Shown here piece by piece: positions 1 through 7,776 of a stretch of 64,000 nt of DNA. Every line of letters starts with the position of its first letter. Within the stretch, counting starts at the first letter, position 1. The position numbers were made by a program, and so were the translations under genes. The notes under the pieces are model-generated. The model did no database searches. It saw only the letters and a list, made by a program, of their open reading frames with translations, and had not been told where the DNA came from. The stretch covers positions 18,804 to 82,803 of the forward strand of contig VGDZ01000003.1 of the NCBI GenBank assembly GCA_016869515.1. The letters run 5' to 3'. This DNA comes from Alphaproteobacteria bacterium (GTDB lineage: Bacteria > Pseudomonadota > Alphaproteobacteria > VGDZ01).

Positions 1-857
1 TGGGCGTGGTGTTCCAGAACTACGCCCTGTTTCCGCATCGCACCGTGACCGAGAACGTGGCCTTCGGCCTGCGCATGCGCGGCGTCACCCCGACCGAGAT
101 CGCGTCAAAGGTCGGCCGCATGCTCGATCTGGTCGGCCTGCCCGGCACCGAAGGCCGCCTGCCACGGCAACTTTCCGGCGGCCAGCAGCAGCGCGTGGCG
201 CTGGCGCGCGCGCTGGTGATCGAGCCGCGCGTGCTGCTGCTCGACGAGCCGCTGTCGAACCTGGATGCGGTGCTGCGCAAGCGCATGCGGGCCGATCTGC
301 GTGCGATCCAGCGCCGCCTCGGCATCACCGCCATCGCCGTCACCCACGACCAGGACGAGGCGTTCGAGATGTCCGATCGGGTGGCGCTGATGGACCAGGG
401 CCGCATCGAACAGCTTTCGACGCCCGAGGGGCTTTACGACCGGCCGGCGACGCGCTTCGCCGCCGAGTTCATCGGCGAGGCGGTGTTCGTGCCGGGCCGC
501 ATCGGCTCGCTGGTCGGCGGCCGGGCGCGCGTCGCCACCGAGTCCGGTCTCGGCTTCGACGGCATTCCATGCCCCGACGGACTCGGCGTCGGAGCCGCCG
601 TCTATGTGCTGATCCGGCCCGAGCGCATCGACTTGATTCTCGACGACGCCGCGCCCGCCGGCGCGATCGAGGCCGAAATCGTCGATCGCGTGTTTTCGGG
701 CGAACAGGTCAGCCTGTCCCTGCGCGTCGCCGGCGGGCTGGTGCTCAAGGCCAAGAAGCCCAGCCTTGGCCGCTTCCGCGATTTGGCGCCGGGCCGCAAG
801 CTTCGGCTGCTGGCGCAGGATCCGCGGCTGGTGCCGCGGACGGACGGCGCAACGTGA
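1..857 (+). CDS. ABC transporter ATP-binding protein, PotA/spermidine-putrescine/Fe3+ type (5' partial, runs off window start)
   Basis: ORF 6..857 in frame with window start; ABC signature LSGGQQQRVALARAL, Walker B LLLDEPLSNLD, C-terminal TOBE-like domain; stop TGA at 855-857. Confidence 0.85.
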   Translation, partial: GVVFQNYALFPHRTVTENVAFGLRMRGVTPTEIASKVGRMLDLVGLPGTEGRLPRQLSGGQQQRVALARALVIEPRVLLLDEPLSNLDAVLRKRMRADLRAIQRRLGITAIAVTHDQDEAFEMSDRVALMDQGRIEQLSTPEGLYDRPATRFAAEFIGEAVFVPGRIGSLVGGRARVATESGLGFDGIPCPDGLGVGAAVYVLIRPERIDLILDDAAPAGAIEAEIVDRVFSGEQVSLSLRVAGGLVLKAKKPSLGRFRDLAPGRKLRLLAQDPRLVPRTDGAT

Positions 858-1702
858 CCGAGACCCGTCGCGCCGGCTGGCTGTTCGTGACGCCGATCGG
901 GTTGCTCTATCTGCTGATCCTGCTGGCGCCGCTGTCCTATTTTCTCTTGCTCAGCATCTTCAAGTATTCGGCCTTCGAGATGTATCTGTTCGAGCCCACC
1001 GCCGAGAACTACCAGCGCCTGCTGTTCGATCCCTACTACCGCGGCGTGATCTACCGCACGCTGCGCATTGCCGCCACCACCACCGTCTTCACCTTGCTGG
1101 TGGCCTATCCGCTGGCCTATTTCCTGGCCCGCTACGGCGGACCCGGGCGCGGCGTGCTGATGTTCCTGGTGATCGCGCCGCTGATGAGCGGGGTCATCGT
1201 CCGCACCTACGGCTGGATCGTGCTGCTGGGGGCCGAGGGCACGATCAACACCGCGCTGATCTGGCTGGGCGCGATCCAGCGCCCGATCCAGATCCTGCGC
1301 ACCGAGTTTGCGGTGATCATGGCGATGGTCCACATCCTGCTGCCCTACATGGTGTTTCCGCTGTTCTCGGCCATCGTCGCCCAGGAACGCAATCTCGAAC
1401 AGGCGGCGCGCACGCTCGGCGCCTCCAACTTGCGCATCTTCCTCGAGGTCACGCTGCCCTTGTCGCGGCCGGGCATCGTCATGGGCTCGGTGTTGGTGTT
1501 CACGCTTACCGCCGGCGCCATCGTCACGCCGCAACTGCTCGGCGGCAAGGAGATGAAGGTGCTGGGCATCCTGATCTACGACCTGGTGCTGACGACGCTG
1601 AACTGGCCCTTGGCCTCGGCGGTGGCCTCGCTGCTGGTGCTGCTGCAGTTCTCGGTCATCGTCCTCTATTTCCGGGGAGCGCGCGGCCGTGCCGCGGCGT
1701 GA
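854..1702 (+). CDS. ABC transporter permease (PotB-like)
   Basis: In-frame GTG at 854 overlapping upstream stop (GTGA); multi-TM protein with EAA-like loop ERNLEQAARTLGAS; the longer ORF from 569 is an N-terminal extension overlapping the ATPase gene. Confidence 0.8.
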   Translation: MTETRRAGWLFVTPIGLLYLLILLAPLSYFLLLSIFKYSAFEMYLFEPTAENYQRLLFDPYYRGVIYRTLRIAATTTVFTLLVAYPLAYFLARYGGPGRGVLMFLVIAPLMSGVIVRTYGWIVLLGAEGTINTALIWLGAIQRPIQILRTEFAVIMAMVHILLPYMVFPLFSAIVAQERNLEQAARTLGASNLRIFLEVTLPLSRPGIVMGSVLVFTLTAGAIVTPQLLGGKEMKVLGILIYDLVLTTLNWPLASAVASLLVLLQFSVIVLYFRGARGRAAA

Positions 1703-2519
1703 CGAGATCGGCGGCTGGGGCGCGTTGCCGCGCTTCATCGGCGCGGCGGCGGTGACTCTTACCTACCTTTTCCTGCTGGCGCCGATCGTGATCGTGATCT
1801 TCACCTCGTTCAATCCGACCGAGGCCAACGCCTTTCCGCCGACTGGACTGTCGCTGCGCTGGTACCACGAGTTCGCCGAGAGCGACGGCTTCGTCTCGGC
1901 CTTTCTGTTCAGCCTGTGGCTGGGCATTCTGGCGGCGATCGGGGCGACGGCGATCGGTTTTCTCGCCGCCTACGCGCTGCTGCGCTTCTTCGCCCGCCGC
2001 CGCGAGCTTGGCCAGGCGCTGACCATGCTGCCGATGATGATCCCGCACGTGCTGATCAGCATCTCGCTGGTGTTCATGCTGACCGTGGTCGAGCTGCCCG
2101 AGACGCTGACGCTGCTGCTGGGTCATATCATCATCTGCCTGCCCTTCACCGTCGCCGGCATCCTCTCCAGCCTGGATGCGGTCGACCGCAATCTCGAGCA
2201 TGCCGCCTTCACGCTGGGTGCCTCGCGGGCGCGGGTGATGTGGGAGGTGACGCTGCCGCTGATCGCGCCCGGGCTGCTGTCGGCGCTGATCTTCGCTTTC
2301 ATCGTCTCCTTCGGCGACGTCTACATCGCCCTGTTCCTGTCCGGTCCGGGCAAGACCACGCTGCCGATCGAGATCTTCAATTACATGAATTGGCAGAGCA
2401 CGCCGGTGATCGCCGCCATCACCAGCGTCCAGGTGGCGATGATCGTCGTCCTGGGGCTGGCGATCGAGCGGCTGGTGGGCCTGCGTCACGTCATGCGCAT
2501 CGAGGAGACACGGCGATGA
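1689..2519 (+). CDS. ABC transporter permease (PotC-like)
   Basis: GTG start overlapping end of upstream permease; TM-rich; EAA-like loop DRNLEHAAFTLGASRARVMWEVTLPL. Confidence 0.8.
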   Translation: MPRRDEIGGWGALPRFIGAAAVTLTYLFLLAPIVIVIFTSFNPTEANAFPPTGLSLRWYHEFAESDGFVSAFLFSLWLGILAAIGATAIGFLAAYALLRFFARRRELGQALTMLPMMIPHVLISISLVFMLTVVELPETLTLLLGHIIICLPFTVAGILSSLDAVDRNLEHAAFTLGASRARVMWEVTLPLIAPGLLSALIFAFIVSFGDVYIALFLSGPGKTTLPIEIFNYMNWQSTPVIAAITSVQVAMIVVLGLAIERLVGLRHVMRIEETRR

Positions 2520-6791: not shown

Positions 6792-6792
6792 C

Positions 6793-7776
6793 ATGGCCGC
6801 GGCCAGGAATTTCCGCATCGGCAGCGCCCTCGCCCGTCCCGGCAAGCGGGTCGAGGGCGAGTTGGTGCTGGGCCATTATCCCGATGCGCCGATCGCCACC
6901 AAGGTCACCATCGTCTCGGGCACGCGGCCGGGGCCGGTGCTGTGGGTGCAGGGCTGCATCCACGGCCCCGAGGTCGGCGGCGTGGTCGCCATGCTGCGTT
7001 TGCTCGAACGCCTCGATCCGCGCCGCATGCGCGGCAGCATCGCCTGCATCATGCTGGCCAATCCGACCGCCTTCCGCGGCTATTCGCGCAACACGCCGGT
7101 CGATACCACCAATCTCAACCGCGTCTTCCCCGGCGCGGCCGACGGCACGCACAGCCAGCAGAATGCGCACGTCCTGATCGAGACCGCGGCTTCGGTGGCC
7201 GATGCGGTGCTGGATCTGCATTCCGGCGGCGATCGCTCGCGCGTGCCCTATTACGGGCTCTATTGGGCCGAGAATTCGGACGCCTCGCGTGAGGCCGGAC
7301 GCCTCGCCCGCGCCTGCGGTACGCGCGACATCTGGGCCTCGATCGACGATTGGCTGGGCGGCGCCATGTTCACCGTGCTGACCAAGCGCGGCATTCCCTC
7401 GCTGATCGTCGAATGCGGCGGCGGCGGCCAGGTGCCCGAAGCCCATGTCGCCAATTTCGTCGCCGCCATGACCGGCGTGGCGCAATCCATGGGCATCCTG
7501 CCCGGCCGGCCCAAGCGCTTTGCGCGCTATCGCGTGTTCGACGAAAGTGCCCTGATCTACAGCCGCAAGGGCGGACTGTTCCGGCCGCTGGTCGAACCCG
7601 GCGACATCGTCGAGAAAGGCCATGTGCTGGGCGAGATCGTCGATCTCTCGGGCAAGGTGGTGGAACGGCCGCGGGCCAGCATCGGCCCGTCCTACATCGC
7701 CTCGATCCGCCGGCCCTGGATGCCGGTCTATTCGGGCGACCAGATCGCCGAATGCAACCGCGTCATCGCGAGCTGA
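6793..7776 (+). CDS. AstE/AspA-family (M14-like) deacylase, paralog 4
   Basis: ATG 6793 two nt after paralog 3 stop; CIHGPEVGG, NLNRVFPG, LIVECGGGG; high similarity to paralog 3. Confidence 0.8.
   Translation: MAAARNFRIGSALARPGKRVEGELVLGHYPDAPIATKVTIVSGTRPGPVLWVQGCIHGPEVGGVVAMLRLLERLDPRRMRGSIACIMLANPTAFRGYSRNTPVDTTNLNRVFPGAADGTHSQQNAHVLIETAASVADAVLDLHSGGDRSRVPYYGLYWAENSDASREAGRLARACGTRDIWASIDDWLGGAMFTVLTKRGIPSLIVECGGGGQVPEAHVANFVAAMTGVAQSMGILPGRPKRFARYRVFDESALIYSRKGGLFRPLVEPGDIVEKGHVLGEIVDLSGKVVERPRASIGPSYIASIRRPWMPVYSGDQIAECNRVIAS

Follow-up and report, generated by a model that had tools for sequence, protein, structure and literature searches.

A Pot-like importer operon with paired DoeB-like zinc deacylases in an alphaproteobacterial genome, a variant of a recurrent gene module

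The sequence analyzed here (the window) is a stretch of 64,000 nucleotides (nt) from Alphaproteobacteria bacterium (GenBank assembly GCA_016869515.1, contig VGDZ01000003.1, positions 18,804 to 82,803 of the forward strand), and the subject of this report is an operon of importer and hydrolase genes at its start. Positions 1..7776 hold eight close-packed genes, all on the + strand. The PotA-like ATPase of an ATP-binding cassette (ABC) transporter (frame 6..857, with the 5' end outside the window; Pfam ABC_tran and TOBE_2) is followed by a PotB-like permease (854..1702) and a PotC-like permease (1689..2519), both matching Pfam BPD_transp_1. Then come two zinc deacylases of the AstE/AspA family (COG3608, DoeB-like branch), A1 (2516..3508, 330 residues) and A2 (3519..4550, 343 residues), a COG1228-group amidohydrolase, AH (4552..5805, 417 residues), and two B-type deacylases of the same family, B1 (5823..6791, 322 residues) and B2 (6793..7776, 327 residues), with which the operon ends. 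Read in order from the ATPase onward, the junctions measure -4, -14, -4, +10, +1, +17, and +1 nt, and the ATGA at 2516..2519 is the stop of the PotC-like permease overlapping the start of A1. The PotB-like permease (282 residues; orthologues, 281-294) probably starts at the GTG at 854, overlapping the ATPase stop, with 887 as a possible alternative start. The ATG of B1 is preceded by GGAAGGAA at 8 nt upstream. A convergent class-IV aminotransferase gene ends 7 nt beyond B2. A search for intrinsic terminators across 1..12000 gave no excess of terminator-like sites, and an Rfam search of the same region gave no match. The importer, the four related zinc deacylases, and the amidohydrolase form a real operon. 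The first-pass annotation of this DNA had every gene of 1..7776 in its right place, and its ATGA coupling at 2516 was read again in the junction sequence. It had also called a single operon coupled to a Pot-type importer, and the layout agrees, with overlaps or gaps of at most 17 nt and no terminator excess. The packing is as tight as it described, although its range of 0-10 nt for the gaps was too narrow, since one gap (AH-B1) is 17 nt and overlaps reach 14 nt.

Related loci were mapped by BLAST with the module proteins. Scanning a single genome for each species yielded 49 loci, metagenomes yielded 80 more, and the non-redundant set comprised 66 loci, with the A region readable in 62, at least 3.5 kb of downstream sequence in 44, and upstream sequence in 30. 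In three other genomes (L002, L004, and L006; 53-74% identity), an IclR gene and a binding-protein gene precede the ATPase, the two permeases, and the A-A-AH-B-B array in that order. The flanks of the three are mutually unrelated, and the shared order therefore defines a ten-gene module. In the genome studied here, the IclR and binding-protein genes would lie just upstream of the window. In every related locus, the ATPase orthologue (356-378 residues) takes up this position. The second permease is followed directly by two A genes, no more and no fewer, in 57 of the 62 readable loci; the five exceptions lie at contig edges, in frameshifted long-read assemblies, or, in one case, in a rearranged locus. 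Downstream patterns in the 44 loci were A-A-AH (14), A-A alone (13), A-A-AH-B-B (5), A-A-B (5), A-A-AH-B (4), and A-A-B-B (3), so that AH is present in 23/44 and B in 17/44 (two B genes in 8/44, one in 9/44). The conserved core is the IclR regulator, the PotD-like binding protein, the ABC ATPase, the two permeases, and the A-A pair; the AH and B genes are optional accessories, and the window carries the richest common version, A-A-AH-B-B. The array singled out by the first-pass annotation thus recurs in other genomes with its gene order, but it is not a conserved unit, being found in 5/44 loci only.

The hosts of the module are mostly Alphaproteobacteria (Microvirga, Mesorhizobium microcysteis, Microbaculum, Falsiroseomonas, Oceanibacterium, and Ferrovibrionaceae), with further hosts in the Burkholderiales (including Lautropia) and among Methylomirabilota/Rokubacteria metagenome-assembled genomes (MAGs). 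Oceanibacterium hippocampi CECT 7691 and Microvirga antarctica are hosts available in culture. Multi-copy occurrence is unexceptional for the DoeB-like deacylase branch, and the expectation that members of this family occur singly fails there: Ornithinibacillus halotolerans (L045) has three paralogues, the Cytobacillus oceanisediminis plasmid NZ_CP062791.1 (L060) has the branch at five places within 11995..24867, and a Thermodesulfobacteriota MAG also carries an array. The Bacillota arrays are interleaved with genes for an M20 hydrolase and an Opp-type peptide transporter. Clustering of flanking open reading frames from 36 loci gave, beyond HyuAB and M20, only off-frame artifacts of conserved genes or sporadic short-chain dehydrogenase/reductase or permease genes. 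Next to the window operon lie the class-IV aminotransferase and polar amino-acid ABC transporter genes that had been suggested as possible feeders of the same pathway; in no other mapped locus do they neighbor the module. This adjoining transporter (8712..11734, - strand) is EhuACD-like below the cut-offs (EhuC, 172 versus 197 bits; EhuA, 283 versus 345 bits), and its binding protein gave a weak match to a Lys/Arg/Orn subfamily (88 versus 256 bits). A plasmid search found no close homologue of the module, every match being at 32% identity or less, and an opine-type plasmid island is not indicated on that ground. Literature searches found no published characterization of this deacylase branch or gene cluster, in line with the earlier description of the module as uncharacterized.

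All four deacylases match Pfam PF24827 (AstE_AspA_cat) at 83-92 bits against a cut-off of 25 bits (A1, 82.8; A2, 92.1; B1, 84.0; B2, 85.8), and AH matches Amidohydro_1 (PF01979) at 143 bits, so the profile search agrees with the family assignments made on first reading. Among NCBIfam models, DoeB (TIGR02994) ranks first for each of the four, at 89-110 bits versus a cut-off of 402.7 (A1, 90 bits; A2, 110 bits). No NCBIfam AstE model was matched at E <=0.01 by any of the four, no ast genes are adjacent to them, and the aspartoacylase model scored 15-19 bits against a cut-off of 180. The best solved relatives were 3cdx, 3na6, and 2qj8, which are structural-genomics proteins of unknown function, and 6twl and 6twm, both DoeB/EutE, with E values from 1e-24 to 1e-12 (A1 versus 3cdx and 6twl, ~1e-23; B1 versus 6twl, 5e-24, and versus 2qj8, 4e-20). 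CphZ-like structures were matched weakly over ~80-90 N-terminal residues (3fmc, E 1e-6 and 6.5e-6; 3lwu, E 8e-3). By these scores, the four are assigned to the DoeB-like (COG3608) branch and not as orthologues of DoeB, AstE, aspartoacylase, or any characterized enzyme. MpaA, which had been listed with them as an AstE/AspA member, belongs to M14 proper.

The split into two subfamilies is borne out by pairwise identities of 52% for A1/A2, 59% for B1/B2, and 36% for A versus B. The H-x-x-E motifs are exactly as first quoted (CIHGNEQCG, CIHGDEYCG, CLHGQEVGG, and CIHGPEVGG), and the other motifs stand broadly, with corrections to DLNR(V/C)FPG in A1/A2, LIVESGG in A2, VIVECGG and KGQALG in B1, and KGHVLG in B2. 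Seven residues (H55, E58, R97, N110, R111, H144, and E207 in A1 numbering) are invariant across the four paralogues and are kept in 63/63 A orthologues and in 24/24 B orthologues, except for one Tyr at H55 (23/24). We take H55, E58, and H144 to be zinc ligands, R97 the polarizing Arg, N110/R111 the carboxylate-binding pair, and E207 the catalytic Glu; their presumed counterparts in aspartoacylase are H21, E24, R63, N70, R71, H116, and E178, mapped by motif spacing and not by structure. Since all catalytic residues are kept, all four deacylases are predicted to be active and none a pseudo-enzyme. The A and B types differ at ~15 otherwise fixed positions, among them E102D, D108N, T145S, A146G, and W153Y near the catalytic motifs, and with such differences beside the motifs, the two types probably take different substrates.

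AH aligned over its full length (~400 residues) with PDB entries 2qs8, 3mtw, 3be7, 3feq, and 4c5y, with E values from 1e-50 to 1e-36. Its best NCBIfam model was NF051886 (XaaProDiPepCaul, Xaa-Pro dipeptidase of the Caulobacter type), at 272 bits versus a cut-off of 500. Of these and related entries, 3MTW is the Arg carboxypeptidase Cc2672, 3FEQ/3MKV the prolidase-type Sgx9260, and 4C5Y ochratoxinase. AH is classed by these matches as a binuclear-metal amidohydrolase of the COG1228 carboxypeptidase/prolidase/ochratoxinase group, and its motifs DVHVH, WIKLF, VAVHAH, IEHG, and GTDAG would supply the binuclear-metal ligands, an assignment made by resemblance to the set described for CaeD. The nearest solved relatives (Cc2672, prolidase-type, and ochratoxinase) split an amino acid from an acyl group, which speaks against the ring-opening or deamidating role earlier given to AH; further acyl-amino-acid hydrolysis is the more likely reaction. 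COG1228 relatives of AH have been described as removing a C-terminal amino acid from an acyl group (PMC5636949). AH resembles this group in its full-length alignment and Amidohydro_1 domain and differs from it in falling below the nearest equivalog cut-off and in being an optional member of a multi-hydrolase operon.

For the importer, the truncated ATPase scored 256 bits with the NCBIfam potA subfamily model, and the window permeases scored 188 bits with PotB (cut-off 348) and 148 bits with PotC (cut-off 326). The orthologous binding protein scored 54.6 bits with the PotD model (cut-off 582), and its best solved relatives were PotD and PotF. As the window's own binding protein lies outside the window, residues were read from the Oceanibacterium protein (L006, 5991..7079) aligned to Escherichia coli PotD and then from 23 orthologues. 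The acidic polyamine ligands of PotD are E36, D168, E171, and D257. The aromatic box of PotD is kept in the family (equivalents of W34, Y37, W229, W255, and Y293), E171 is kept in 21/23 proteins, and the E36 position is D or E in 18/23. A change of E36 to Lys was considered as a family feature and rejected, being true of 5/23 proteins only. The D168 position is hydrophobic or small and uncharged, never acidic, in 23/23, and the D257 position is aromatic in 23/23. Loss of D168 and D257 weakly suggests, on this alignment, a ligand with one alkyl-ammonium group rather than spermidine. PotABCD and the importer belong to the same transporter family and share gene content (binding protein, TOBE ATPase, and two permeases) and the aromatic box. 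They differ in that the PotB-, PotC-, and PotD-like components fall below their equivalog cut-offs (the window ATPase being truncated), two of the four acidic ligands are gone, and the importer here sits within a hydrolase operon under an IclR regulator.

Other hydrolases accompany the module in part of its range, and the recurring accessory types (AH, B, M20, HyuAB, and creatininase-like) are all amide- or lactam-hydrolyzing. In all, the operon encodes two to six amide hydrolases that are predicted to be active. A HyuA/HyuB pair, for which the best model was caprolactamase (alpha) at 454 bits versus a cut-off of 1000, is divergent from IclR in 9 of the 30 loci with upstream sequence and lies downstream on the same strand in L096. 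The window also has a HyuA/HyuB hydantoinase/oxoprolinase pair followed by a Peripla_BP_6 binding protein (57040..62035, + strand). This pair is only 30-35% identical to the module-linked HyuAB found elsewhere and so probably represents a different system. An M20 deacylase of the ArgE/DapE type is divergent beside IclR in several lineages. The window has an unlinked gene of this type 25 kb from the module (32623..33852, + strand; Pfam Peptidase_M20; NCBIfam DapE-ArgE subfamily, 141 bits), which is 65-70% identical to the module-linked M20 of L006, L061, L009, L016, and L036 and is the orthologue of the module-adjacent M20 and possibly an accessory here. Its neighbors are genes for a GntR/FCD regulator (34000..34761), a xanthine/uracil-family permease (34877..36229, - strand), and allophanate hydrolase (36226..38112, - strand). 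A creatininase-family gene stands directly upstream of an AstE/AspA-family gene in four distant lineages (L042, 6647..8456; L046, 2013..3765; L047, 9106..10861; L061, 9189..10987), and in the last of these, a marine lineage, it lies between AH and B. The pairing suggests a recurrent two-step sequence of ring opening followed by deacylation.

Two of the gene contexts hint at lysine. The marine lineage (L061) was found in more than 100 sample blocks, and in it the genes next after B2, at a distance of 22 nt, encode lysine-ketoglutarate reductase (E 2.6e-71 to human AASS) and saccharopine dehydrogenase (E 5.5e-93), which together make up the saccharopine route of lysine breakdown. In L058 (3419..5660) and L059 (1..1712), the gene for the module binding protein is immediately preceded, on its own strand, by LysW-, LysX-, and LysY-like genes, with no IclR gene in between; LysW/LysX/LysY belong to the amino-group carrier protein pathway. 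Apart from these two contexts, the module in L145 has additional amidohydrolases, a Dpp-type transporter, and one more M20 behind it.

We consider it reasonably probable that the operon is one variant of a widespread catabolic module for an N-acyl compound that releases a basic amino acid of the lysine type. The binding protein would capture a small compound bearing an alkyl-ammonium group. Once the compound is imported, the A enzymes would hydrolyze an amide bond at the alpha-nitrogen of a free-carboxylate amino acid, as DoeB does with N-alpha-acetyl-diaminobutyrate and CphZ with beta-Asp-Arg/Lys. Further or related acyl-amino-acid bonds would fall to AH, the B enzymes, and M20, and the lactamase, where present, would open a cyclic amide. 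The released amino acid would most likely be basic, of the lysine, ornithine, or diaminobutyrate type. An N-acyl amino acid is favored over an acyl-polyamine by the retained carboxylate-binding Asn-Arg pair together with the loss of two PotD acidic ligands. A lysine-type product is favored by the link to lysine-ketoglutarate reductase and saccharopine dehydrogenase, the kinship of AH with Arg/Lys carboxypeptidases, the caprolactamase-like lactamase, and the ArgE/DapE-type M20. Several points weigh against this reading. The chemistry was derived wholly by homology, at 30% identity or less to characterized enzymes, and the PotD residues were mapped through an alignment of roughly 25% identity (an estimate). 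The lysine link comes from one lineage (lysine-ketoglutarate reductase and saccharopine dehydrogenase) plus circumstantial similarities, and flanks elsewhere are heterogeneous (dihydrodipicolinate synthase, an FAD oxidase, glyoxalase, a class-III aminotransferase, and a Dpp-type transporter). The A genes also lack a consistent first/second signature, their identity within a locus (59%) equaling that between loci (57-62%).

Two substrate classes suggested by the nearest named families are less likely than an N-acyl amino acid. An ectoine or hydroxyectoine catabolic cluster, with the four genes as DoeB/EutE deacetylases, would account for TIGR02994 being their top NCBIfam model and for 6twl/6twm being among their best solved relatives, and the neighboring polar amino-acid ABC transporter is closest to EhuC, EhuD, and EhuA (EhuC at 172 bits versus 197). 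The DoeB scores of 89-110 bits are nevertheless far under the equivalog cut-off of 402.7, no M24 hydrolase (DoeA/EutD) was present among the Pfam-annotated genes of 13 module-bearing loci (the window being annotated in part only), the module transporter is Pot-type and not Ehu/Ueh, and the Ehu-like transporter is not a conserved neighbor, all of which makes this reading highly unlikely. The earlier proposal of an N-acylated polyamine substrate amounts to a polyamine uptake operon with acetyl- or acyl-polyamine deacylases, and it is consistent with the placement of the transporter in the PotABCD family by Pfam and NCBIfam ranking, with PotD and PotF as the best solved relatives of the binding protein, and with the retained aromatic box and two acidic ligands. 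It is very improbable given that the transporter components score well under the Pot equivalog cut-offs (54.6 versus 582 bits for the binding protein), that the PotD D168 and D257 positions are uncharged or aromatic in all 23 binding-protein orthologues, and that the deacylases keep the carboxylate-binding Asn-Arg of N-acyl amino-acid hydrolases; known acetylpolyamine amidohydrolases, moreover, are of the unrelated histone-deacetylase-like family. Opines, aerobactin- or desferrioxamine-type siderophores, peptidoglycan peptides, epsilon-polylysine, and gamma-Glu-epsilon-Lys were also considered; all are conceivable, and none has specific support beyond the general picture of an acylated basic amino acid.

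The doubling of the A gene can be weighed separately. Within a locus, the A pair is 49.5-73.8% identical (mean, 59%); between loci, identity is 58-62% for A proteins at the same position and 57% for those at crossed positions. In a neighbor-joining tree of the A proteins, ~18-20 loci fall into position-specific clades, and in ~9 loci the two copies are mutually closest, which suggests re-duplication or gene conversion there. A signature search of first versus second A genes returned a single column, 151, where T stands against V within 18 loci only. Since the identities and signature columns show essentially no position-specific orthology, the A genes are not sorted here into alpha and beta subunits. 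Both A copies are always kept and both look active, yet they do not fall into two recognizable subunit classes. The two leading possibilities are a hetero-oligomer of active subunits and a pair of closely related specificities (regio- or stereo-isomers).

Obligate hetero-oligomers, in which A1/A2, and B1/B2 where both are present, form mixed complexes of two active subunits, are a possibility that we put forward tentatively; a pair would then count as a single enzyme. It is favored by the persistence of two A genes, without a clear loss, in 57/62 readable loci of the Alphaproteobacteria, the Burkholderiales, and Methylomirabilota/Rokubacteria MAGs, by the retention of every catalytic residue in both A copies, by the B1/B2 junctions that are overlaps or 1-3 nt gaps in several loci, and by the reported dimeric state of the family member CphZ (PMC9974463). 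The lack of position-specific signature residues and the A identity that is no lower within a locus than between loci argue in the other direction, as do the A1-A2 gaps of 4-72 nt, never overlapping in the loci listed; the single B gene in 9/44 loci means that B, at least, works without a partner. Parallel or sequential specificities, the second idea of the first-pass annotation, are likewise possible though doubtful. Each paralogue would then cleave its own bond or isomer within a single imported compound or family of compounds, for instance one of two acyl isomers (N-alpha or N-omega), the L or the D form, or either arm of a molecule that is acylated twice. The ~15 otherwise fixed differences between A and B, several of them beside catalytic motifs, fit such a division of labor, and so do the presence of up to six different amide hydrolases per locus and an accessory set that varies by lineage, as expected with differing related substrates. 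Against it, the two A copies are nearly without conserved differences, so that distinct, fixed specificities of A1 and A2 across the family are not evident. A broader proposal, which we regard as unlikely, is that the A (and B) pairs are obligate hetero-oligomers and, with the importer, make up a widespread route in soil, groundwater, and ocean that mineralizes a specific multiply amide-linked lysine-type compound, for example a derivative of lysine or ornithine that contains a lactam or is N-acylated twice; it might come from the breakdown of siderophores, cell walls, or storage polymers. To our knowledge, no obligate hetero-oligomeric deacylase has so far been reported in the AstE/AspA superfamily.

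The rest of the window holds further loci. A second Pot-type ABC importer (12834..16581, - strand), with an ATPase, two permeases, and an SBP_bac_6 binding protein, lies beside an RraA-like gene (12277..12837, + strand). Three paralogues of the phosphoenolpyruvate (PEP)-mutase/isocitrate-lyase family are found at 16768..17631, 26712..27659 (- strand), and 28747..29649 (- strand), together with two pairs of aconitase-like large and small subunits (20177..21930 and 29875..31944). Among these genes are an isochorismatase-family gene and two polysaccharide-deacetylase-family genes (17645..20171), as well as a Dpp/Opp-type transporter (21940..26600), and the PEP-mutase/aconitase-like region looks like an island of organic-acid catabolism. 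At 38149..42051 (+ strand), a CoA-ligase-domain protein, an AllG-family protein, and an amino-acid (carbamate-type) kinase are encoded in a row that resembles the oxamate branch of allantoin degradation, and two carboxyl-transferase genes follow at 42234..45458.

Among known systems, DoeB/EutE is of the same branch, with an alignment that is full-length for A1/A2 and covers most of B1/B2, and has in common the residues mapped as zinc ligands, catalytic Glu, and carboxylate-binding Asn-Arg. DoeB/EutE deacylates its substrate, an N-alpha-acylated basic amino acid, once another hydrolase has opened a ring, and the lactamase and creatininase accessories of the module parallel this. The module differs in having a Pot-type transporter instead of an Ehu, Ueh, or TRAP system and an IclR instead of an EnuR/AsnC regulator; its deacylases are doubled or quadrupled, and no ectoine hydrolase partner was seen. 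AstE and aspartoacylase (ASPA) share the Pfam catalytic domain, the H-x-x-E...H zinc site, and the catalytic Glu, whereas the AST operon context of AstE is not found here. CphZ/AotO, whose gene lies in the aot operon for an arginine/ornithine ABC transporter, hydrolyzes the cyanophycin dipeptides beta-Asp-Arg/Lys (PMC9974463), and like the module deacylases, it is an AstE/AspA-superfamily hydrolase within an ABC importer operon, freeing a basic amino acid from an N-alpha-acyl linkage. CphZ, in contrast, is probably of another branch and is single copy, and its transporter is of the polar amino-acid type.

An importer and a deacylase under a local regulator are already known from the aot/CphZ operon (PMC9974463) and the ectoine eut/doe clusters (PMC13188858). 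The type of system described here (importer and hydrolases with a local repressor) is conventional, and nothing in it contradicts current understanding. The enzymes make up uncharacterized subfamilies, and it is unusual for a core deacylase to be obligatorily doubled. Identification of the substrate would give a function to a whole branch of the AstE/AspA family, comprising hundreds of environmental sequences currently labeled "predicted deacylase," "peptidase M14," or "hypothetical protein." It would also correct the annotation of a Pot-like importer that is probably mislabeled as a polyamine transporter, and it would name a nitrogen-rich dissolved organic compound that many Alphaproteobacteria, including the marine lineage with its more than 100 sample blocks, have the means to scavenge. 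With its two active and nearly equivalent paralogues so strictly retained, the module is a test case for the persistence of tandem enzyme duplicates.

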